This document shows, one piece after another, positions 897 through 26,390 of a stretch of 43,500 nucleotides of DNA. Source of the DNA: a virus (Duplodnaviria > Heunggongvirae > Uroviricota > Caudoviricetes); the IMG/VR virus record IMGVR_UViG_2728369187_000005; one strand, 5' to 3'. The position numbers and the translations under genes are program-made. Position 1 is the first letter of the stretch. Each line of letters opens with the position of its first letter. The notes under the pieces were generated by a model. That model made no database searches and had not been told where the DNA came from. It saw only the letters and a program-made list of their open reading frames with translations.

Positions 897-3800
897 TCAG
901 CTAATCGTGATGCCTGCAGTGGCTTTCTTCATCACAACAACCAGCAAATCGCTGATACTTGCTGTGGGATACCAGCCATTTACCCACCATGCTGATACAG
1001 AAAACTCCAGTGTCATTACGCCACTGCCTGCAGGCATATCAATAACACCCGTGTAAATCAGAGTATTATCCAGAGCCGTTCGGTTATAAATTTCAGCCCC
1101 GTTTTTCTTCACTATCAGGCGGCATGACGAATAAGTATCGCTATTCTCCCGTTCATGTCTGGCACCGCTGAAAGCCACCGCTGGAATAACAATTTGCCGG
1201 TCAAACGGCTGATCGTCATAAACCCTGACGGTAATGGTCCCTGATGGCCACCGCTCCGGTGCACGGGAGTCCCGGGGGAAAGCTTTGCCCACTGTTTTAA
1301 CGAGATCGCCTTCAATCTGGTTCGCGGACAGTTTTCCCAGAACCCGACAGTTCTCGTTAATCGTGACGTTGTTGAGCGTCCCGGAGTTCGCATTCACGCT
1401 ACCGCTGATATCGGCATTTTTCGCCGTCAGTCGCCCGTCCGGTGTCAGGGAAAATGCCGGAGGATTACCGCCGCTGGTAATGGTGGGAGCCGTCAGATAT
1501 TTCAGGAACACTTCATTCATGAATATCTGATCGCCCTGACCAACAAACATCGGCTTTGTGTTGCCATTCGCAGGATTAATCATCGCAATCCTGTCTGCCG
1601 CCAGCAGCACCTGACTCTGCATGCCGTCGGGGGTGTTCTCAATACCGGCACCGATACCCGCAATATAAAGGCGTCCGTCCTGCATCTGCTGCAGCTTCAC
1701 TGCCCACATGCTGTTCAGGTTATTATTTGTATCAACCTGAACCTTCTGTATCTGCTGGATCGCTGCACTCTGGTCTTCCAGTTTCTTATTGACGGTCTGC
1801 GTGATTTCATTGCTGACATCCGTAATGGACGTCCTGATTTCAGCCAGGTCAGGCGCAAGCTGACCGTTATCAATCTGCGTCCACAGCTCCTGAGCCAGAT
1901 GGGTTTTCCCTATCTCGCCTTTGAAAAAATCCAGATAGCCGGATGCATCATCACTCGGCTGACCAACAGCCTCCACGAATGCCGATTTGCCAACGGTGTT
2001 CACACTGCGAACGTAAAAATAATAATCATGGCCCGGTTTGATATTGATACTGGCGGCTATCCAGTACAGCCCCGTGCCAAGGTAGCGCGCTGTGGTTTCA
2101 ACCTGCCTGATATCGGTAATCCGCTTTTCCGAGAACCAGAACTCAAACTGTACCGTCGGGTCATAAACGGCAAGATGCGGCGTGGCGGTTATCTGAAAAT
2201 ACCCCGGCGTCAGCTCAATCCGCGACGGTGCTACCGGTGCGGCAATCCGGAACGATACCGACNNNNNNNNNNNNNNNNNNNNNNNNNNNNNNNNNNNNNN
2301 NNNNNNNNNNNNNNNNNNNNNNNNNNNNNNNNATCCGCTGCCACGGTCAGGCGAAGCAGGAAGCTCACGCCCTTCACCACCTTCGGCGTGTCCCAGCGCG
2401 CCAGCACCTGATATTCCCCGCTGTCTGCGGTGACTTCGGCGGTCAGGTGCTGCACCGCTGGCGGCGTGACACCATTCACCGTGCCGCTCTGGTCGCCGTC
2501 AAAGTGCGCCCCGTTATCCACGATGGCTTCTTTTTCCGGTACATGCTGCACGGCAGTGATGGCATACGTGCCGTCATCGTTCTCACGGATACTCACACAG
2601 CGGAACAGGCGCTGGCGCAGCGTCGGCAGCTTCAGCCCCCACACACTGTATTCTGCAACGCCGTCAGGAACCCGGTTCACTTTCACCTTAAGTCCGTCGG
2701 TGACGGACTGAACCTCCACGCTGACCGGATTACCACTTCCGTCAACCAGGCTTATCAGCGTGGTACCGGAGGATGGCAGCGTGATTTCACGGTCGAGCGT
2801 CAGCGTCCGGGTCTGGCTGTTCACCGCCAGCACGCGACCACCGGTGCTGATACCGGCATAGTCATCATCGCAGATTTCAATGACATCGCCCGGTACATGG
2901 CGAAGCCCTTCAGCACCCACGCTGAAATCCACGGTCTGCATTTCCAGCAGTTCCGTTTTAATCAGCCACAGCCCGGCGCGGTGTGCCTGCCCCCGGCTGG
3001 TACAGCCAAAGGCATCCATCTTCGTAACATTACGACCGTAACGGGCAATGGCCTGCGTATCTTCAACAAGCTCTGTCGCCGTCTCCCAGCCGTTGTCCGG
3101 GTCAATCCAGTTCACCTCAACGGCATTATGGCGGTCCTTCAGGGCGCTGAAGCTGTAGCGGAACGGCGCGCCATCATCCGGCATCACCACATTACTGCGG
3201 TTATAGGTCCACACCTTATCCGACGGTCGGTCCTGCACGAACGTCAGCGTCTGCCCGTTCCATACCGGCATACAGCGCATCGCCGAGCAGAAATCACTGA
3301 GCACATCCCACGCCTTGCGCTGTGTGGTCAGGTACGCATTACAGGTGATGCGCGGCTCCGTGCCGCCAAAGCCGTCCGGCACTGACTGGTCGCAGTACTG
3401 GCCGATGACATACAGCGCCCATTTGTCCACATCCGCCGCACCAAGACGTTTCCCCATGCCGTAGCGTGGATGGGTCAGCATATCCCACAGACACCAGGCC
3501 ATGTTATTGCTGTATGCTGGCTTAAACGTTCCGTCCCAGATACCGCTGTATTGCCGAGTCTGCGGGTTATAGTTCGACGGCACCTGCAGAATACGCCCGC
3601 GCAGATGATAATTACGGCTCACCTGCTGGCTGCCGAACTGCTCCGAATCCACCTGTACGCCGACCAGTGCCGTGTTCGGGTAGCACTGTTTCACATCGAT
3701 GATTTCGGTGTATGACGACCAGAGCGTTTTGTTCTGCAGCTGGTCTGTGGTGCTGTCCGGCGTCATCCTGCGCATCCGGATATTGAACGGGCGCGGCGGC

Positions 3801-4283
3801 AGGTCACCCACCACCACCGATGCTAGATACTGTGAGGTGGTTTTGCCTTTAATGGTGATGTCTTTTTCCGTCACCCAGCCACCATTACGCTGTATCTGAA
3901 CCAGCAGGCGGACTTCCGACGGATTCCGGTCCCCCTTTGAGGTGNNNNNNNNNNNNNNNNNNNNNNNNNNNNNNNNNNNNNNNNNNNNNNNNNNNNNNNN
4001 NNNNNNNNNNNNNNNNNNNNNNNNNNNNNNNNNNNNNNNNNNNNNNNNNNNNNNNNNNNNNNNNNNNNNNNNNNNNNNNNNNNNNNNNNNNNNNNNNNNN
4101 TATATTGGTATTCCCCTCACTGTCCAGCACCGGCGTACTGTTCAGCAGCACGCTTTTTAATCCATCCACCGGACCTTCAACCGGCCCTTCGCTGATGGCA
4201 TCGATCACACTCAGCAGCTGCGTGGACTTCAGGTTGTCCTTCGCTTCGCGCGGGGTATGCCCCTTACTGCTGCCTTTACCCAT
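897..4283 (-). CDS. J: tail tip host-specificity protein J (reading frame interrupted by two assembly gaps)
   Basis: Three ORF segments (897-2003, 2231-4120, 3885-4283) in one orientation; N-terminus [34 protein letters not shown] and internal blocks match lambda J as recalled; total span about 1129 codons. Confidence 0.85.
2263..2332. other. assembly gap (70 N) inside J
   Basis: Run of N. Confidence 0.99.
3945..4100. other. assembly gap (156 N) inside J
   Basis: Run of N. Confidence 0.99.
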
Positions 4284-19485: not shown

Positions 19486-20551
19486 TCCTTACTCTGGCAT
19501 CAACCACATTAATATTGATCGCCACAGGCTGGGGATGTTCATTATCTTCCACCGTTTCGATCTCTTTGCGCAGCTTCTGGTTTTCCATTCTGCGCCGTTC
19601 AATTTCCAGTTCCTGTAGCCGCTTATCTGCACATAAAGCCCCGCCAGCAGAAAGCAAACGCAACAATTCACGCCGGGCGGCAGCCTTATCCTCCAGCAGG
19701 ATCTCAACGCCGAATTTTCCGAATTTTGCCCCTGCATATAATTGCCGCGCATCCCCATCAAGCAGAGTGGTATCAGCCATATAAAGCTGTCCCGTTCCCT
19801 CACCGCAGCACTTCGGGCAGTCCGGATTGGGTATGGCGTTATCAACAAAGCCGAGGCCTCCATATTCCGGTTCGGGTTTGCCATCTCTGGAAGCCTGCGC
19901 CGCTGCCTTGTCGAATTCTGCTATATCGCGCCACTGGTAGAGATGATTCTCGCCCCAGCAATAACGGCAGTTAACACGGCGAAATTGTGCAAGCTGATTG
20001 GGGTCGGCCAGGACAATGGCCATCAACTGACTCACTAGTAAATCCAGGTCTGCGGAATAGCGTTTCTGGTACTGATTGCGGAAGTAGCTGATAGCGCGAA
20101 AAACCCTGGCATTTCTAAGCATACGACTGGCGTTGCTATTAGCTGTCGCACCTTGCCCCTCATAACCGGCTAGTCGGTACGCCTCTGTCGGCTTTTTACC
20201 CTGAGCAACAAGCATCGCAAACTTAGCCTGCTGGTCAGAAATGCCGAATTCATCGGGACAGAACGAAAATTCCTCCGCGTCGCCCTCATTCAGGCCCGCA
20301 TCGAATACTGGCTTTTTTTCCTGAGATTTTTCGTTCCGCTTTTGTGCAGTCTGCGCAGATTTTTTCTGCGCACTTTTTTGCGCAGTTTTGCACATTTCTG
20401 TCTGCGCATTTTTCGGAGTTTTTTTGATGTAACGACGGGCTGTTGCGTAATTCAGTCCCCTTGCTTCACACCATGCCACCGGAGATATACCGGAGCGGGT
20501 GTATTCAGCAATATACTCCTGCTGCAACGCCCCCCAGTCCGGTCTGCTCAT
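19457..20551 (-). CDS. putative terminase small subunit / DNA packaging protein
   Basis: 364-aa ORF overlapping the terminase large gene start; N-terminal HTH-like segment, Lys/Gln-rich linker, Cys-x2-Cys...Cys-x2-Cys-Cys cluster. Confidence 0.55.
   Translation of the reverse strand: MSRPDWGALQQEYIAEYTRSGISPVAWCEARGLNYATARRYIKKTPKNAQTEMCKTAQKSAQKKSAQTAQKRNEKSQEKKPVFDAGLNEGDAEEFSFCPDEFGISDQQAKFAMLVAQGKKPTEAYRLAGYEGQGATANSNASRMLRNARVFRAISYFRNQYQKRYSADLDLLVSQLMAIVLADPNQLAQFRRVNCRYCWGENHLYQWRDIAEFDKAAAQASRDGKPEPEYGGLGFVDNAIPNPDCPKCCGEGTGQLYMADTTLLDGDARQLYAGAKFGKFGVEILLEDKAAARRELLRLLSAGGALCADKRLQELEIERRRMENQKLRKEIETVEDNEHPQPVAININVVDARVRSDEDDLSDA
20351..20417. repeat. five imperfect tandem CTGCGCA-N-T(4-6) repeats inside the terminase small subunit gene (candidate pac-associated element)
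   Basis: ctgcgcagatttttt / ctgcgcactttttt / gcgcagtttt / gcacatttctg / ctgcgcatttttcgg. Confidence 0.4.
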
Positions 20552-20554
20552 CAG

Positions 20555-20806
20555 TTAGTCCTGATTTTTATCCACCCTGAGTAGTTCGCGCAGAGCAAAG
20601 GCATCCCCTTTTCTGGCAAGCTTAAACAATGCCGCTCGTAACTCGGCTTCACCTTTCGCTCTGCCCTTACGGATGGCCGCATAAAAATCTGTCATTGCTT
20701 CCCGATTTTCTTTCAGTCGGTTCAGATCAACATCCAGAACGTCAGCGATTTGTTGTGCAGTCATCCGGCACGCTGCCAGAGACTCGACTTTCGAATACGG
20801 AATCAT
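20555..20806 (-). CDS. small HTH-like protein of unknown function
   Basis: 83-aa ORF; stop 3 nt before the terminase small subunit start; overlaps the upstream gene by 65 nt. Confidence 0.5.
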   Translation of the reverse strand: MIPYSKVESLAACRMTAQQIADVLDVDLNRLKENREAMTDFYAAIRKGRAKGEAELRAALFKLARKGDAFALRELLRVDKNQD

Positions 20807-21674
20807 TTGTCACCCCCATTGATATGCAGGGTGTCTTCTTCCTGTATTTTTCGTGAAGGATTTTTACTGCAGCGTTGTTCCAGGTGACCTGATGGTGAAT
20901 GCGTTTATGGCTGGCACCCATCAGTGAGATTTTTACGCACGACGGCGCATACATGACGGAGTAAAAACTTTTAACGTAGGTTCCGGAATCCAGATACAGC
21001 TCGGTCATTCCGCCGCTGTTTTTCTGCGTCTGTTTCTGCCCTAACTGGACAGCACCGATCGTCATAAACAATTCACCACAGCGACCGAGATTCGTGTACG
21101 TATTCACATCCTCGTTAATGCGCCCCATGAATGAGAACGGTCGATCAACCGAACAGATAAAGCTGTTCATTGCCTTGCGTTTCACCCACGAAGCATGGCC
21201 GCCATTGTCACCAAGAAAATCCCCGCCCTGCGACATAGCGATGGAAAGAGCAGGTATTGATTCGTAGTACGCCAGCATTTCAGAAAGGATCGCATCCAGT
21301 TTCCTTATCGGAAAATAGGCCTGGTCATAGTTGCGATCCACCCGAAACTGGAACTCGTGATAATCATCATCGAGCTGAATGAAGTATTTACACCCGACCA
21401 GTTTTGCCAGGTCGAAACAGGCATTACGGGCGTAAAAAATTGAGCGGCGGTCACAGAAATTATCGGCTTCGTCAAAACGACTGGCGATATCGGCTTTGGA
21501 AAACACCAGCACCTGTTCACCAAATTCAGCCATGTACTGATGCCGTGTCTTATCTTCATCATCAACAACGATAAAAATTTTCCCGGTATAGCCAGCACGA
21601 CGCAACGTCCGGTAAGTCAGAACTTTGTCCGGTCGCCCGTGAGTCAGAATAAAGGCGCAAAAATCATCACGCAT
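20742..21674 (-). CDS. hypothetical protein with GT-A-like DxD motif pattern (K-12 ydaY-like region)
   Basis: Start MRDDFCAF at 21674, overlapping the upstream stop within ATGCGTGA and preceded by GGAGGAGGAGGAA; motif series FILTHGRP ... IFIVVDDED ... FIQLDDDY. Confidence 0.6.
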   Translation of the reverse strand: MRDDFCAFILTHGRPDKVLTYRTLRRAGYTGKIFIVVDDEDKTRHQYMAEFGEQVLVFSKADIASRFDEADNFCDRRSIFYARNACFDLAKLVGCKYFIQLDDDYHEFQFRVDRNYDQAYFPIRKLDAILSEMLAYYESIPALSIAMSQGGDFLGDNGGHASWVKRKAMNSFICSVDRPFSFMGRINEDVNTYTNLGRCGELFMTIGAVQLGQKQTQKNSGGMTELYLDSGTYVKSFYSVMYAPSCVKISLMGASHKRIHHQVTWNNAAVKILHEKYRKKTPCISMGVTNDSVFESRVSGSVPDDCTTNR

Positions 21675-22458
21675 ATTCCTCCTCCTCACCACCATGCATG
21701 ATCTCCACCATGCGCTGCGTCATCCGGACAAATCCATTTTCAATAGCCTGCTGATAATCAATGATCACCAGCGCCGACTCCTCGAAAAAACACTGAATTT
21801 CAGAGGGGGCGTGAGCGTAATAGTCCGCAATTCTGCTGAAATTAAACACCGTGTGACGTTCTGCCGCACACAGGAGGAATTTCTCAATATCAGGCTCAAG
21901 GGACGCCGAACGTATCCGGCTGATCAGCTCCTGAGTTTTCGTATCGTCGTACAGTTCACTGATATCCGGTTTACCGCCCGACGGCTCATAAACAGGCGTA
22001 TCAATTTTCGTCGTATACGGCTCCTCCTCATTTCCTGTACCGGGCAAAACATCCGTCAACAGTTCATCAATTTCTGTCGGGATGAAGCCTGTCAGGGAGA
22101 CATCAAAATCAGCATTGATTAGGTCCGACAGCTCCATCCGCAACAGATCTTCATCCCAGCCAGCATTCATCGGCAGGCGATTATCTGCCAGGCGGTACGC
22201 CTTTTTCTGCTCATCCGTCAGGCCAGACAGAACAATGACCGGAACAGAATCCATTTTGAGCATTTCAGCCGCCATAACACGACCGTGACCCGCAATAATT
22301 TCGCCCTTTTCGTCAATCAGCACCGGATTAGTCCAGCCGAATTGCTTAATACTTTCTACCAGTTGTGCCACCTGCTCAGTACTGTGCGTCCTGGCGTTGT
22401 GCGCATACGGTGACAATTCTTGTAATGGGCGATAGACTATCTTTAATTTCTCGCTCAT
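21667..22458 (-). CDS. ynaK: ParB-like nuclease domain protein
   Basis: N-terminal ParB/Srx-type motif block IVYRPLQELSPYAHNARTHS ... NPVLIDEKGEIIAGHGRVMAA; 263 aa; acidic C-terminal tail. Confidence 0.8.
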   Translation of the reverse strand: MSEKLKIVYRPLQELSPYAHNARTHSTEQVAQLVESIKQFGWTNPVLIDEKGEIIAGHGRVMAAEMLKMDSVPVIVLSGLTDEQKKAYRLADNRLPMNAGWDEDLLRMELSDLINADFDVSLTGFIPTEIDELLTDVLPGTGNEEEPYTTKIDTPVYEPSGGKPDISELYDDTKTQELISRIRSASLEPDIEKFLLCAAERHTVFNFSRIADYYAHAPSEIQCFFEESALVIIDYQQAIENGFVRMTQRMVEIMHGGEEEEYA

Positions 22459-22595
22459 ACAGCCTTGCTTTATGAATAAAACGCACCCCAGCAGCCAGTG
22501 CTACTGGGGACGGAGGTGTTGCTGGTAAAGTTAGGTATTGGATCAATGAGTGAGTCAACATAATATTAAACTCACAATTATAAATCAGCCATATA

Positions 22596-24053
22596 TTAGG
22601 AGCGCCAAAAAAAACCTGAAAACAATATAATAACAGGATAAATTTCAAGGCGACCAAGAATCATAGCTATGCACATTAAACATTTTGCAATGTCATTAAG
22701 CACTCCGAATGACGATGCAGTAGCCCCAAAACCTAATCCCATATTATTAATACATGCAGCCACTGTTGCAAATGATGTAAGAAAATCATATCCCATACCA
22801 TTTAACACCAGTATAAAAAACACCGTGAAGAGAGTATAAAGAAAAAAGAAACTCCATACAGACCTCATTACACGATCTGTAACTATCTTCCCTCCTACAT
22901 TTACACTCAACAACGCTCTGGGATGAGAAAGCTGATTTATCTCGTGTTTGCTTTGTTTGAAAAGTATAAGAAATCGAAGTGACTTAATTCCACCACAAGT
23001 TGAACCTATACATCCCCCAAAGAAACTTGACAACAGCAAAAACACTATCGTGTGCGTGGGCCAACTTGCATAATCCTGCGTAGCTAAACCATTATCAGTG
23101 AGCATGGAGCTGGCAAGAAAAAACGAATGAATAAAACTTCCATGCAAGTCATACATACCTATATGCCAGACCTGGAAAGAGGTAACAATGATCACCCCTA
23201 AGGCTATTAACAGAAAGAAACGAAGTTCAATATCTCTGATTAAAGGTTTTATCGTTTTCCTGCTAATAACAATATACCAAAGAGTGAAGTTGAAAGCCGA
23301 TAGCAGGGAAAAAGAACCAGCCACCAGCTCAACCAAATAGTTATTAAAATATCCGATACTCTCGCTATGAGTTGAGAAACCACCAAGCGAAACTGTGGAA
23401 ATCCCGTGACAAATAGCATCAAACAAAGGCATTCCTGCAAGTCTATAACAGACAATACAAGCAATACCTAATAAAGAATAAGTTATCCACAGTGTCCGTG
23501 ACGTATCGGCCAGGCGGGGAGTGAGTTTGTCATCCTTAAATGGCCCCGGCATTTCTGACTGATAAAGCTTTGCACCACCAATACCCAATAATGGCAATAC
23601 AGCAACCGCCAGAACAATAACTCCTAAACCACCTATAAAATTTAACTGTGACCGATAGTACAAATATGCCCGAGGTAATGAACTAACATCATCAATTACA
23701 GTTGCTCCTGTTGTTGTTATTCCAGAAACCCCTTCAAACAGAGCATCAATGAACGTTAAATTAAGTTCTGAGTCAATCCATAAAGGGAATGCACTAATAA
23801 CAGAAAACAAAATCCAAAACATTACAATTATAATAAACCCATCACGGGTACGTAATTGAATGCCAGATTTCTTAGTTGTATACCACGCTCCGCCACCAAT
23901 GCAAAAAAATATAACGAAAGTTATAAAGAAAACGAACAGGCTTTTTTCTTTATAAAACAATGCTACAACCATTGGTGGCAACATTGAAAGACTATAGAGC
24001 CAAACCAGGAACCCACACATATGAGTAACAACTCTTACATGAGATGTATTCAT
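22596..24053 (-). CDS. trkG: Trk-family K+ uptake transporter
   Basis: Polytopic membrane ORF with N-terminus MNTSHVRVVTHMCGFLVWLYSLSML as recalled for K-12 TrkG; AT-rich codon usage typical of a moron. Confidence 0.9.
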   Translation of the reverse strand: MNTSHVRVVTHMCGFLVWLYSLSMLPPMVVALFYKEKSLFVFFITFVIFFCIGGGAWYTTKKSGIQLRTRDGFIIIVMFWILFSVISAFPLWIDSELNLTFIDALFEGVSGITTTGATVIDDVSSLPRAYLYYRSQLNFIGGLGVIVLAVAVLPLLGIGGAKLYQSEMPGPFKDDKLTPRLADTSRTLWITYSLLGIACIVCYRLAGMPLFDAICHGISTVSLGGFSTHSESIGYFNNYLVELVAGSFSLLSAFNFTLWYIVISRKTIKPLIRDIELRFFLLIALGVIIVTSFQVWHIGMYDLHGSFIHSFFLASSMLTDNGLATQDYASWPTHTIVFLLLSSFFGGCIGSTCGGIKSLRFLILFKQSKHEINQLSHPRALLSVNVGGKIVTDRVMRSVWSFFFLYTLFTVFFILVLNGMGYDFLTSFATVAACINNMGLGFGATASSFGVLNDIAKCLMCIAMILGRLEIYPVIILFSGFFWRS

Positions 24054-24190
24054 ATCTAAATATTCTTTCAATTATAACCACCTTGCTGCAATATTATGAT
24101 TATACTGTATAAAATTTAACTCCTCTTAGATCTTACTTCACTGTTCCTTATGAAACAATCATCAAAATGAATCATATTGTAGTTAAGATT

Positions 24191-25690: not shown

Positions 25691-25852
25691 ATGTCTGAAA
25701 AAAACAAACCACAAGGTGAAAATAAACCTCAGCAACCCGTGGCACCAAAACCAACTCCAACACAAAGTACTACAGACTTTGCTACACGTCGTGTTTTTGT
25801 TGGAGATTCTGCCGACTCAGTCATTGAACATATAAAAAAACAGCCGAGATAA
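25691..25852 (+). CDS. small Pro/Lys-rich hypothetical protein (53 aa), convergent with the membrane-protein moron
   Basis: ATG 7 nt after AAGAGGA; MSEKNKPQGENKPQQPVAPKPTPTQSTTDFATRRVFVGDSADSVIEHIKKQPR; 3' end overlaps the 189-aa gene. Confidence 0.35.
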   Translation: MSEKNKPQGENKPQQPVAPKPTPTQSTTDFATRRVFVGDSADSVIEHIKKQPR

Positions 25853-26390
25853 ACATCGCCGCTACCGGAGCAAGGATGGTATACATCCTTGCTTTATCGA
25901 GACTCGTGCGGATTTTCTCATTTTCCAACAGTAACTCTCTTGCTGTATCACTCAAGTCAACAAGGCGATACCTTCGTATAAGCGGCAATAACTTATCAGG
26001 TCCTAAATATCCTGCATCAGCGAATATTTTAAAGCTCGAGGGCTCCATATCCTTATATTTTTCATGATATATATGATCAGGAGGGGCATTGATCAGGCCC
26101 CTAACCTTCACAGATAAACCAGTACATACCAAGTAAATGGCGCACCATGTCCATAGTAATGTAAATGTGGTAATTCCGGCGGTGAGAAAATCGAAATTAG
26201 TTTTCTGTGTCAGCAATAAAAAAGATGAACCAATTCCAACAATCTGAATGTTCAGAAGTTTGTATCCATTCTCAACATTGGTTTTGTTAGAAAGATGAAT
26301 CTCTCGTATCGTCTCTTCCCCTTGTTTTTCAAGATAATCGACGAGCTCATCATCTACTCCTAAAAAATAATCTTTAGGTAGTTCTCTCAT
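25821..26390 (-). CDS. hypothetical polytopic membrane protein (moron between Q and holin)
   Basis: 189-aa ORF, AT-rich; GGAGG upstream of ATG; about three hydrophobic segments (IQIVGIGSSFLLL, FLTAGITTFTLLWTWCAIYLVCTGL, MYTILAPVAAMFISAVFLYV). Confidence 0.6.
   Translation of the reverse strand: MRELPKDYFLGVDDELVDYLEKQGEETIREIHLSNKTNVENGYKLLNIQIVGIGSSFLLLTQKTNFDFLTAGITTFTLLWTWCAIYLVCTGLSVKVRGLINAPPDHIYHEKYKDMEPSSFKIFADAGYLGPDKLLPLIRRYRLVDLSDTARELLLENEKIRTSLDKARMYTILAPVAAMFISAVFLYVQ

Follow-up and report, generated by a model that had tools for sequence, protein, structure and literature searches.

A ParB-like protein and a TAGT-family glycosyltransferase form a conserved gene pair beside phage terminase genes

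Full-length YnaK, a ParB-like protein of an E. coli Rac-type prophage, and the predicted TAGT-family glycosyltransferase encoded next to it make up a two-gene unit that recurs, commonly beside terminase genes, in phages of many bacterial phyla and in archaeal viruses. The pair may be a late-expressed two-component DNA glycosylation cassette, a reading to which we give an about even chance; family assignment and the literature on ParB-associated enzymes (PMC13229309, PMC8256090, bioRxiv 10.1101/2023.12.21.572611) suggest a DNA-modification role. The prophage was analysed in a window of 43,500 nucleotides, by which the whole stretch of DNA is meant, for which an initial annotation made from the sequence alone was available.

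Gene arrangement

Three minus-strand genes occupy 22458-20555, just 5' of the DNA-packaging genes (Table 1). The initial annotation had described them as chained to the terminase genes, and both the three ORFs and their spacings were recovered from the sequence: the ParB-like stop and the following start share ATGCGTGA, a 65-nt stretch (20806-20742) belongs to both the 310-aa and the 83-aa ORF, and 3 nt (CTG) separate the 83-aa stop codon TAA (20557-20555) from the terminase small-subunit ATG at 20551, with the large-subunit gene in turn overlapping the 3' end of the small-subunit gene. The purine tract reported behind the first junction is present, as GAGGAGGAGGAA with GGT before it, one base off the GGAGGAGGAGGAA that had been given, and the junction string GAGGAGGAGGAATATGCGTGA has a single exact occurrence (21687..21667). 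For the glycosyltransferase, the longest ORF is 317 aa from 21695, and the 310-aa start agrees with the N-terminus of all homologues. The region had been placed between the lysis cassette and the terminase; trkG and a terminator-like hairpin intervene before the ParB-like gene, the hairpin following trkG and ending 28 nt short of the start codon of the ParB-like gene.

Table 1. Features of the region in window coordinates
Feature	Position	Strand	Remarks
ParB-like partner protein (full-length YnaK), 263 aa	21667..22458	-	ORF list and sequence
Predicted TAGT-family GT-A glycosyltransferase, 310 aa	20742..21674	-	PGAP name 'GREB1-related protein'
83-aa basic protein, pI 9.3	20555..20806	-	Accompanies Terminase_2-type small subunit
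Terminase small subunit, 364 aa	19457..20551	-	Pfam Terminase_2, PHROG 51
Terminase large subunit, 436 aa	18175..19485	-	Pfam Terminase_6N and Terminase_6C
Terminator-like hairpin	22486..22509	-	10 pairs, then TGCGTTTTAT; consensus match only
trkG	22596-24071		Between lysis cassette and ParB-like gene
ParB-like stop/TAGT start junction ATGCGTGA	21667..21674	-	TGA and ATG, 8-nt overlap, behind GAGGAGGAGGAA
Linker and C-terminal domain of ParB-like protein, residues 140-263	21670..22041	-	TAGT-coupled part

The ParB-like/TAGT stop-start junction has the form of a translational-coupling junction. Stop and start overlap in 72 of 77 homologous junctions, by 8 nt in 27 and by 11 nt in 33, and an 8- or 11-nt overlap is a trait of the ParB-like/TAGT family; since hundreds of independent loci show this gene order and a stop/start overlap, the arrangement is not due to chance. 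The 65-nt overlap at the distal end of the glycosyltransferase gene stems from a recent stop-codon loss specific to this E. coli lineage and is not a designed feature: close relatives stop at ...CTGCTGA/CTGCTAA, and the window has CTGCATATCA at the same place. Residues 1-288 correspond to the conserved enzyme, and because of the stop-codon loss the last 22 residues (289-310) are taken as a lineage-specific, non-conserved tail of low confidence.

The 83-aa gene had been counted with the other two as a three-gene unit and its product described as HTH-like. The gene is real, with a dN/dS of 0.05-0.2, and the HTH resemblance is weak: the sole real match of the protein is to PHROG 309 'terminase small subunit' (positions 145-218 of 319, E = 8e-23), with no Pfam match at E < 0.008 and only spurious leucine-rich-repeat matches in the PDB profile search. 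PGAP calls the gene at 69 aa, and the 83-aa start, with a GGGGGTGA Shine-Dalgarno, is conserved in relatives. A full Terminase_2 small subunit is encoded directly 3' of it; across loci the gene was found only with a homologous Terminase_2-type small subunit and was absent where another terminase type follows. It thus appears to belong to the packaging/terminase module and not to the ParB-TAGT cassette, which leaves a unit of two genes.

The 310-aa glycosyltransferase

The 310-aa protein matched the Pfam family PF20691 (TAGT) with 122.3 bits (gathering score 27.5, E = 3.4e-35) over positions 4-205 of 205, and PHROG 842 at 6e-104. A GT-A fold had been proposed from the spacing of FILTHGRP, VVDDED and QLDDDY, and this reading is upheld: the three blocks are present and family-invariant, and the protein is classed as a glycosyltransferase of PF20691 with the GT-A (nucleotide-diphospho-sugar transferase) fold. 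The window protein keeps R14, D102-D103-D104 and E188-D189, each of them invariant or conserved to at least 90% in sets of 25 and 67 homologues, as well as every other family-invariant residue. An R...DDD...ED(Y/F) active-site motif is common to phage enzymes and JGT (Pyle et al.; bioRxiv 10.1101/2023.12.21.572611); in the window protein, ED is followed by V, with Y193 after it, the motif having been compared by alignment of homologues.

The TAGT family includes the base-J glucosyltransferase, the T2/T6 beta-glucosyl-HMC alpha-glucosyltransferase and the phage glycosyltransferases that accompany 5mYOX (5-methylpyrimidine dioxygenase, TET/JBP family), and DNA as the sugar acceptor is established by biochemistry (PMC13216743, PMC13390438, PMC8256090). 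Apart from animal GREB1, the characterised members all put sugar on DNA, and a hydroxyl acceptor is required by every characterised DNA-acting TAGT.

The ParB-like partner

The 263-aa partner consists of a ParB/Srx NTP-binding domain (residues ~1-100, containing GHGR, 57-60, and DN, 92-93), an acidic helical segment (101-135), a disordered linker and a helical C-terminal domain (~172-255). In the AF2 model, the N-terminal domain has a pLDDT of about 80-90, residues 136-157 fall below 50, and helices are placed at 103-134 and 172-255. The ParB/Srx-type assignment made in the initial annotation was borne out by Pfam ParB_N (29.3 bits, cut-off 26.3), by PDB profile matches to Noc and ParB (2e-5, N-terminal domain only) and by Foldseek matches to CTP-binding ParB (ParB-CDP), Noc, PadC and KorB at 5e-7; since the AF2 model of the C-terminal domain is of low confidence, the Foldseek result is informative for the ParB domain only. 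The protein matched PHROG 620 at 1e-90, and its residues 3-141 matched PHROG 498 (ParB-domain DNA methyltransferase fusions) at 9e-51. With regard to the ParB residues for nucleotide binding and hydrolysis (box I Q-x-R, box II GERR, box III N), N21, G57, R60 and N93 are at least 80% conserved among 67 partners, R23 is present in the window protein, and the hydrolysis Glu of GERR is His (GHGR). The net charge is -25 and the pI 4.5. The literature search returned ynaK in gene lists only.

The name 'ParB-like nuclease' was dropped, as nothing supports a nuclease and the folds matched are those of NTP-binding ParB, Noc, Srx and SerK. A plain partition ParB, the outcome that would have counted against the earlier reading, does not describe the protein either. 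It shares with canonical ParABS/Noc the N-terminal NTP-binding fold, the GxxR motif and the box III Asn, but it scored 38.1 bits against TIGR00180 (cut-off 58.45), the prophage has no parA, the N-terminus MSEKLKIVYRPL is without the LG(R/K)GL ParA-binding motif, and no HTH, parS-binding or other recognisable DNA-binding domain was found in Pfam, NCBIfam and PDB profile searches; it further differs in the Glu-to-His change in GERR and in a strongly acidic region after the NBD. The first proposal that ParB directs modification enzymes is said, by those who cite it, to be that of Iyer et al. in 2013.

The C-terminal domain had no Pfam, NCBIfam or PDB sequence match; it is better conserved than the N-terminal domain (mean identity 45% vs 33%), and its conservation tracks that of TAGT. 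The linker carries the motif Y148-T-x-K-I-x-x-P155-x-Y157-x-P159, in which Y157 is invariant and Y148 near-invariant. Linker and C-terminal domain together were found in 1189 clusters (50% identity), always at the C-terminus of proteins of about 250-300 aa; among the best 150 representatives lengths ranged from about 130 to 430 aa, and the ten longest contained ParB_N only. The ParB NTP-binding domain is present in about 90% of partners. Partners made of the linker and C-terminal domain alone occur in Vibrio 191-kb phages and other lineages, with the linker motif kept.

Occurrence and conservation of the pair

Of 74 species-level loci, drawn from many phyla, 73 have the linker and C-terminal domain adjoining TAGT; TAGT follows the partner in all 78 partner-seeded viral contigs, a scan that also yielded one natural fusion protein of 522 aa with the order ParB-CTD-TAGT, and it is adjacent in each of the 28 GenBank phage records in which linker and C-terminal domain occur. 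Seeded from the other side, all 86 TAGT loci (80 from the viral-contig scan and 6 others) carry the partner. The linker and C-terminal domain are accordingly described here, from co-occurrence in sequence, as a putatively specific TAGT partner. Annotated examples of the pair come from Lactobacillus phages c5 and phi jlb1, Haloarcula virus HHTV-2, Nocardia phage NTR1 and Porphyromonas phages. Viruses of many bacterial phyla and of archaea carry it, E. coli prophages and haloarchaeal viruses among them. In the literature searched, no paper connects a ParB-like protein to TAGT where a dioxygenase is lacking.

The genes seen most often next to the pair are those of the terminase, which usually come after it. 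In some lineages, genes are inserted in or beside it, namely His_Phos_1 with a cytidylyltransferase, UDP-galactopyranose mutase, an epimerase, Methyltransf_23 (also fused to TAGT), a second TAGT and radical SAM; these are predicted to be sugar-nucleotide or tailoring enzymes.

Among dioxygenase-less enterobacterial prophages, dN/dS is 0.05-0.15 for the ParB-like and TAGT genes (0.11-0.15 for the ParB-like gene), values that indicate purifying selection on both. At least 80% of the queried region is present in 866 of 5426 complete E. coli genomes. In K-12, where only remnants were said to survive, MG1655 does retain ynaK as an 87-aa stump, with the glycosyltransferase and packaging genes deleted. 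In this window, gpJ is broken.

Search for an acceptor-making enzyme

The known acceptor sources for TAGT enzymes are a JBP/TET enzyme or a dCMP/dUMP hydroxymethylase in the same genome. The window yielded neither a TET/JBP dioxygenase nor a hydroxymethylase (Pfam on unassigned ORFs of useful size), and the PGAP annotation of a 99.97%-identical prophage contains no TET/JBP dioxygenase; a hidden TET/JBP dioxygenase in the prophage was rejected on these two results. In phage c5, with a complete genome of 31.8 kb, no dioxygenase or hydroxymethylase is annotated, and its unannotated ORFs had no Pfam match. Flanking ORFs of diverse loci were scanned with Pfam in pools of 150, 150 and 123, and in these 423 ORFs TET_JBP was not among the listed families with at least two matches, single occurrences being possible. 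E. coli DNA is not known to contain hydroxymethyl bases.

Proposed function and alternative explanations

In the proposed cassette, the 310-aa enzyme would carry out nucleotide-sugar-dependent glycosyl transfer of the TAGT type, the linker motif and C-terminal domain of the partner would hold the enzyme, and the ParB-type NTP-binding domain, where present, would regulate the complex or load it on double-stranded DNA, which would mirror the ParB proteins that activate phage thymine dioxygenases (PMC13229309). From its place in the late operon, the cassette would be expressed and translated together with the DNA-packaging genes, and, being made late and beside the terminase genes, the pair would act on replicated phage DNA around packaging, so that the virion genome is marked against host defences. 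We infer binding between the partner and the TAGT enzyme, DNA as the acceptor, and counter-defence as the role of the pair. Several points speak against this reading: the partner is strongly acidic (net -25) and without a recognisable DNA-binding domain, the TAGT family member GREB1 glycosylates a protein (PMC7968844), the model of the C-terminal domain is of low confidence, no enzyme supplying the hydroxyl acceptor that characterised DNA-acting TAGTs require was found in the window or in phage c5, TET_JBP was not among the families listed with at least two matches in the flanking ORFs, and hydroxymethyl bases are not known from E. coli DNA.

A further claim, which we hold as tentative and rather doubtful, is that the pair glycosylates DNA without 5-hydroxymethylpyrimidine, on a canonical base, a host-methylated base, a DNA end or, in phages of anaerobes, an acceptor made by the neighbouring radical-SAM enzyme. 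If true, this would be an undescribed DNA modification chemistry, installed at packaging, in tailed viruses of many bacterial phyla and archaea.

The TAGT enzyme might O-glycosylate a protein and not DNA, either the partner itself, at the Tyr/Thr motif of its linker, or a packaging or virion protein from the adjacent genes; we consider this unlikely. GREB1 O-GlcNAcylates its protein target from within the same family (PMC7968844), and no DNA acceptor is available here. The most conserved feature of the partner is the short Y148/Y157 motif, which lies in the region with pLDDT below 50 and is retained by ParB-less partners, and so acidic a partner is unlikely to bind DNA directly. In glycogenin and glycocin systems, enzyme and acceptor are likewise encoded side by side. 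Yet the same conserved motif would equally suit a docking peptide, JGT, the T2/T6 enzyme and the 5mYOX-linked glycosyltransferases act on DNA, and the ParB domain found in about 90% of partners is otherwise tied to DNA-modifying enzymes (PMC13229309).

Phage 5mYOX genes most often have ParB, glycosyltransferases and terminases beside them (PMC13229309), and the pair might be an orphaned remnant of a ParB-dioxygenase-glycosyltransferase hypermodification cluster that does nothing useful here after dioxygenase loss. The absence of a dioxygenase from this prophage, the non-conserved tail that stop-codon loss has added to the enzyme, and the ready decay of Rac-type prophages (K-12 is without the region, and gpJ is broken in the window) would all fit such a history. 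It is nevertheless improbable, as both genes keep low dN/dS values in dioxygenase-less enterobacterial prophages, every family-invariant residue is kept, the dioxygenase-less pair is the rule across phyla, including lytic phages with complete genomes, and published ParB-dependent dioxygenases go mostly with kinases and amino-acid transferases, not with glycosyltransferases.

Prophage defence, in which the enzyme would add sugar to the hydroxymethylated or glucosylated DNA of superinfecting T-even-type phages and so hinder replication or expose that DNA to modification-dependent nucleases, is highly improbable. The T2/T6 second glucosyltransferase, which acts on glucosyl-5hmC, belongs to the same Pfam family (PMC13216743), phages containing 5hmC do meet E. 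coli, and Pyle et al. consider it possible that prophage glycosyltransferases act against phages through hypermodification. However, within the late operon the genes come after Q, the lysis genes and a terminator-like hairpin, with no promoter-like site in the 137-nt gap before the ParB-like gene, so expression in the lysogen is not expected, and the pair is found in lytic phages (c5) too, as it is in hosts without known hydroxymethylated phages.

Independent functions, with a packaging or partition DNA-binding ParB beside an unrelated cargo glycosyltransferase, for example for envelope modification, would suit a site where phages keep packaging accessories and cargo genes and where the upstream neighbour, trkG, is clear cargo, but are largely refuted and the least probable reading, as the co-occurrence data count against them (adjacency is near-universal from both sides), a natural fusion protein and conserved stop/start overlaps exist, there is no ParA gene, ParA-binding motif or HTH domain, and the enzyme is soluble, without membrane or envelope context.

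Comparison with known systems

ParB176/5mYOX176 (O'Toole et al., PNAS 2026, PMC13229309) resembles the ParB-TAGT pair in several respects. ParB176 has the same order of NBD, helical segment, unstructured linker (roughly 50 aa in ParB176) and CTD, has no DNA-binding domain, is encoded beside a post-replicative DNA-modifying enzyme near terminase genes, and is cognate-specific. Its enzyme is a dioxygenase, whereas here the enzyme is a glycosyltransferase and no dioxygenase was found at the loci examined; published ParB-dependent clusters contain mainly kinases, amidotransferases and amino-acid:DNA transferases (PMC13229309). Unlike in ParB176, the ParB domain is dispensable in some lineages of the present family, and the likeness rests on the description of ParB176.

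The TAGT DNA glycosyltransferases (Burke 2021; Pyle 2023/2024) share the Pfam family, the GT-A fold, the R...DDD...ED motif and phage origin with the enzyme described here. They use 5hmU, 5hmC or a sugar on 5hmC, whereas no enzyme making such an acceptor was found here or in c5, and they are not described with an obligate linker-plus-CTD partner, which the present pair has. The PHROG 498 fusions (Kaljevic et al. 2025, PMC12704722) combine the same type of ParB N-terminal domain with a DNA-modifying activity and are enriched in prophages, as here; they join it to a methyltransferase in one polypeptide, whereas here a separate glycosyltransferase is engaged through a family-specific linker and C-terminal domain. 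GREB1 has the same Pfam domain, and NCBI names the window protein 'GREB1-related', but GREB1, which is large and cytoplasmic, O-GlcNAcylates the oestrogen receptor (PMC7968844) and has neither a ParB partner nor a DNA context.

Implications

Phage DNA glycosylation is currently seen as a second step, in which a hydroxymethyl group is first made by a thymidylate-synthase-like enzyme or a TET/JBP dioxygenase and is then decorated by a glycosyltransferase. As judged from its gene content, the ParB-TAGT cassette breaks with this scheme, being conserved, partner-locked and terminase-adjacent, with no hydroxylating enzyme found. About 65% of phage glycosyltransferase contigs are without a known precursor enzyme and have been set aside (Pyle et al.). 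The ParB-TAGT pair, with its linker and C-terminal domain partner in more than a thousand protein clusters, would be a large, coherent subset of these orphan phage glycosyltransferases with a testable partner, and it is readily testable, being carried by inducible prophages that are common in E. coli. Should DNA be the acceptor, the pair would represent new modification chemistry, with a bearing on restriction and CRISPR evasion, phage genome sequencing and enzymatic DNA labelling; if the acceptor is protein, it would extend the ParB fold to the control of protein glycosylation.

Gene structure and junctions

The three open reading frames (ORFs) and their junctions match the description in the initial annotation: the TGA stop of the ParB-like gene lies within ATGCGTGA, the ATG of which starts the 310-aa gene, GAGGAGGAGGAATATGCGTGA occurs once in the window, the 310-aa and 83-aa genes overlap by 65 nt, and the 83-aa gene stops 3 nt ahead of the terminase small subunit ATG. 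The stop/start overlap is a family trait, present at 72 of 77 junctions and mostly 8 or 11 nt long. Homologues of the 310-aa protein are ~285–290 aa, and the final 22 residues of the window protein have no aligned counterpart and a pLDDT <50 in the predicted structure. Because close relatives keep a stop after ACACCCTGC (TGA or TAA), where the window continues ACACCCTGC ATA TCA, the 65-nt overlap reflects a recent stop-codon loss in the window lineage. RefSeq/PGAP calls the small gene 69 aa, from an internal ATG; the original 83-aa call is favoured, since its start (as ATG or GTG) and GGGGGTGA ribosome-binding site are conserved in relatives. This gene was seen only where a Terminase_2-type small subunit comes next, the only match to its product is a partial one, to a PHROG small-subunit family, and we assign it to the packaging module.

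Glycosyltransferase and ParB-like partner

The 310-aa protein matched Pfam PF20691 (TET-associated glycosyltransferase, TAGT; E = 3.4e-35) and PHROG 842 (6e-104). The motif blocks from which a GT-A fold had been proposed coincide with invariant positions of the TAGT family (R14 in THGRP, D38/D41 in DDED, D102-D104 and Y105 in LDDDY), so that proposal holds and can be narrowed to one particular family; further invariant positions are Q149/D152, N187-E188-D189, GGMT 221-224, and R258/H260/H261. An R...DDD...ED(Y/F) active-site signature is common to phage GT-A DNA glycosyltransferases and the trypanosome base-J glucosyltransferase (Pyle et al., bioRxiv 10.1101/2023.12.21.572611).

By profile and structure matches, the N-terminal ~100 residues of the ParB-like partner form a ParB/Srx NTP-binding domain, with N21, G57, R60, and N93 conserved across 67 partners, R23 also present in the window protein, and GHGR in the window partner versus GERR in canonical ParB. 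The window partner has no helix-turn-helix domain and no ParA-binding peptide, falls 20 bits short of the TIGR00180 partition-protein model, and is carried by a prophage without a parA gene. Past the NTP-binding domain, the predicted structure has an acidic helical segment, a disordered stretch (pLDDT <50, residues 136–157) with the motif Y148-T-x-K-I-x-x-P155-x-Y157-x-P159, and a helical C-terminal domain (CTD) with the motif FLxxAAxRHTVFxF..IADYY...ESALVIID. Across 42 sequences at 25–48% identity, the sole invariant residues were G57, Y157, R201, A211, Y214, and D234. The net charge of −25 lies entirely downstream of the NTP-binding domain; partners were acidic in every lineage checked, and the enzyme neutral to basic in most non-halophilic lineages. 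The layout of NTP-binding domain, short helical segment, unstructured linker, and CTD, without a DNA-binding domain, is shared with ParB176, which a phage thymine dioxygenase needs for action on double-stranded DNA (O'Toole et al., PMC13229309).

Linkage of the two genes

Every linkage test agreed: partner and TAGT genes are one unit. Seeding with TAGT, a ParB-like gene was immediately upstream in 86 of 86 loci (80 from a viral-contig scan and 6 others). With one genome per species (GTDB) and loci with readable upstream sequence, a gene with the linker plus CTD (residues 140–263 of the window partner) abutted TAGT in 73 of 74, the hosts including Enterobacterales, Bacteroidales, Veillonella, Clostridia, Desulfovibrionaceae, Chlorobi, Saccharibacteria, Acidobacteriota, Kiritimatiellae, Alphaproteobacteria, and methanogens. 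Seeding instead with a Porphyromonas phage partner, only 25% identical to that of the window, TAGT was downstream in 78 of 78 evaluable viral contigs, and of 50,697 GenBank phage records 28 contained the linker plus CTD, all 28 with TAGT adjoining. Cultured viruses also carry the pair (table); homology to the window partner is full-length in HHTV-2 (hhalign 1.2e-57) and covers the ParB domain, linker motif, and CTD in NTR1 (hhalign 7e-28).

Partner, CTD included, and TAGT are fused in one 522-aa ORF on a single contig, where a sequencing frameshift is possible. In the 191-kb phages of Vibrio, as in several further lineages, the partner lacks the ParB domain and is made up of linker and CTD only; that of Vibrio phage pv27 shares 51% identity with window ParB residues 138–247. 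Such short partners, 113–153 aa, were also seen at loci L104, L148, L153, and L168. The linker plus CTD comprises 1189 clusters at 50% identity, is always C-terminal, in proteins of ~250–300 aa, and had no fusion partner except the ParB domain among the best 150 representatives, the ten longest of which were scanned. Over 67 species-level pairs, the ParB domain averaged 33% identity, the linker plus CTD 45%, and TAGT 49%.

Coordinates of features in the window and in homologous loci (L-numbers, own coordinates)
Feature	Location	Strand	Remark
ParB-like partner	22458..21667	minus	263 aa
TAGT	21674..20742	minus	310 aa
83-aa gene	20806..20555	minus	PGAP start 20764
Terminase small subunit	20551 (ATG)	minus	
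trkG	22596-24071	minus	potassium transporter cargo gene, between lysis cassette and ParB-like gene
Terminator-like hairpin	22486-22509	minus	after trkG
189-aa ORF	25821-26390	minus	between Q-like antiterminator and holin
Tail-tip gene J	897-4283	minus	TUM1226 J maps to 4283-4101, 3943-2333, 2261-900
Immunity-region segment	34823-35883		
Pair, Lactobacillus phage c5	ORF1/ORF2		cultured; first genes after cos
Pair, Lactobacillus phage phi jlb1			cultured
Pair, Haloarcula virus HHTV-2	genes 21/22		cultured
Pair, Nocardia phage NTR1	Orf1/Orf2		cultured
Pair, Porphyromonas phages			cultured
Partner-TAGT fusion	L193:5983-7551		522 aa
ParB-domain-less partner	L092:6459-6878		Vibrio phage pv27
His_Phos_1 + cytidylyltransferase-like protein	L201:1419-2387, L213:5208-6176, L218:6743-7699, L223:6719-7714, L249:6731-7687		between ParB-like gene and TAGT
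TAGT-Methyltransf_23 fusion	L144:3581-5275		564 aa, Hyphomonadaceae genome
Methyltransf_23 gene	L097:358-975		205 aa
Radical-SAM enzyme	L141:10860-11819, L142:10830-11819, L143:2695-3630, L156:2095-3084, L162:10866-11825		~320 aa, Clostridia prophages

Genomic neighbours

The usual downstream neighbours of the pair are terminase genes of any family (Terminase_2, Terminase_3, Terminase_4, Terminase_6, GP3_package, and Sf6-type). Some lineages have tandem TAGT copies, a UDP-galactopyranose mutase and an epimerase/dehydratase near the pair, or a Methyltransf_23 enzyme that is either fused to TAGT, as in the Hyphomonadaceae genome, where a second TAGT follows, or free-standing, as in Pantoea and related prophages, where it immediately precedes the ParB-like gene. 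At five loci a bifunctional His_Phos_1 (histidine phosphatase) and cytidylyltransferase-like protein is encoded within the pair, and probably makes a special activated donor. At five or more Clostridia loci TAGT is directly followed by a radical-SAM enzyme that begins within a few bases of the TAGT stop (one copy with a SPASM domain), and seven further Radical_SAM neighbours were found in viral contigs; this enzyme could provide oxygen-independent acceptor preparation, replacing an O2-dependent dioxygenase. Donor-synthesis and tailoring functions of this kind fit an active glycosylation pathway.

The prophage and its distribution

The window sequence is that of an E. coli lambdoid prophage of the Rac type. 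Positions 20400-22700 match ETEC H10407, along with many further chromosomes, at 100% identity; of 5426 complete E. coli genomes, 1620 contain this stretch and 866 contain ≥80% of it. The prophage of strain TUM1226, 99.97% identical to that of the window, has the minus-strand order Q-like antiterminator, holin, lysozyme, Rz, trkG, ParB/Srx-domain protein, 'GREB1-related protein', small hypothetical protein, terminase small subunit, terminase large subunit, portal, head, and tail. At the corresponding place, K-12 MG1655 has trkG, a ynaK stump of 87 aa, and ydaY, the glycosyltransferase and packaging genes being deleted.

Many E. coli relatives of the window prophage lack trkG between the lysis cassette and the ParB-like gene. 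The 189-aa ORF has hydrophobic stretches and no match in Pfam. The window immunity-region segment does not align to the otherwise near-identical TUM1226 prophage, which carries an IS5 absent from the window. The J protein of TUM1226 (1159 aa) maps onto the window as three pieces in two frames, with residues 62–124 and 662–705 absent; gene J looks broken, and this prophage copy may be incapable of making infectious particles.

Interpretation

We hold with moderate confidence that the pair is a late-expressed two-component glycosylation cassette, in which a dedicated ParB-like partner would hold and regulate TAGT, and the bound enzyme would act on phage DNA near the time of packaging. The analysis establishes family, fold, pairing, coupling, position, and selective constraint; physical binding, DNA as the acceptor, and a counter-defence role are what we infer. 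The initial proposal of a modification, anti-restriction, or packaging-accessory system is supported, refined by moving the 83-aa gene to the packaging module and by reading the 65-nt overlap as stop-codon loss.

DNA as acceptor has precedent in the T2/T6 enzyme that puts a second glucose on glucosyl-5hmC, also a PF20691 member (PMC13216743); the animal TAGT member GREB1 O-GlcNAcylates a protein (PMC7968844). Protein glycosylation, possibly on the partner's own invariant Tyr/Thr motif, is the main rival, and we consider it unlikely. The window encodes neither a TET/JBP dioxygenase nor a pyrimidine hydroxymethylase, the annotation of the complete lytic phage c5 genome includes neither (its unannotated ORFs had no Pfam match), and TET_JBP was not among the families matched by at least two of 423 flanking ORFs scanned. 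In published clusters, ParB-dependent dioxygenases occur chiefly with kinases, amidotransferases, and amino-acid transferases, glycosyltransferases mostly accompanying ParB-independent dioxygenases (PMC13229309), and ~65% of glycosyltransferase contigs lack a precursor enzyme and are regarded as less obviously DNA-related (Pyle et al., bioRxiv 10.1101/2023.12.21.572611). That the pair is an orphaned remnant of a ParB-dioxygenase-glycosyltransferase cluster seems quite improbable; in enterobacterial prophages purifying selection acts on both genes (dN/dS 0.05–0.11 for TAGT and 0.11–0.15 for the partner). We rate action on the hydroxymethylated DNA of other phages as very unlikely. Chance adjacency of unrelated genes can practically be dismissed, given the agreement of the linkage tests.

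Neither protein family is new, and both carry annotations. That DNA-modifying enzymes of phages are accompanied by ParB proteins was reportedly first proposed by Iyer et al. in 2013. Experimental confirmation for dioxygenases followed in 2026 (O'Toole et al., PMC13229309). The searchable literature yielded no description of a TAGT-specific partner family defined by the linker motif and a CTD without a Pfam model, of its obligate, translationally coupled pairing with TAGT, of the placement of the pair beside terminase genes across bacterial and archaeal viruses, or of its independence from any hydroxylating enzyme. For the cassette reading, modification of DNA by the pair without a hydroxymethyl precursor is a tentative and rather doubtful extension; if true, the chemistry would be new.
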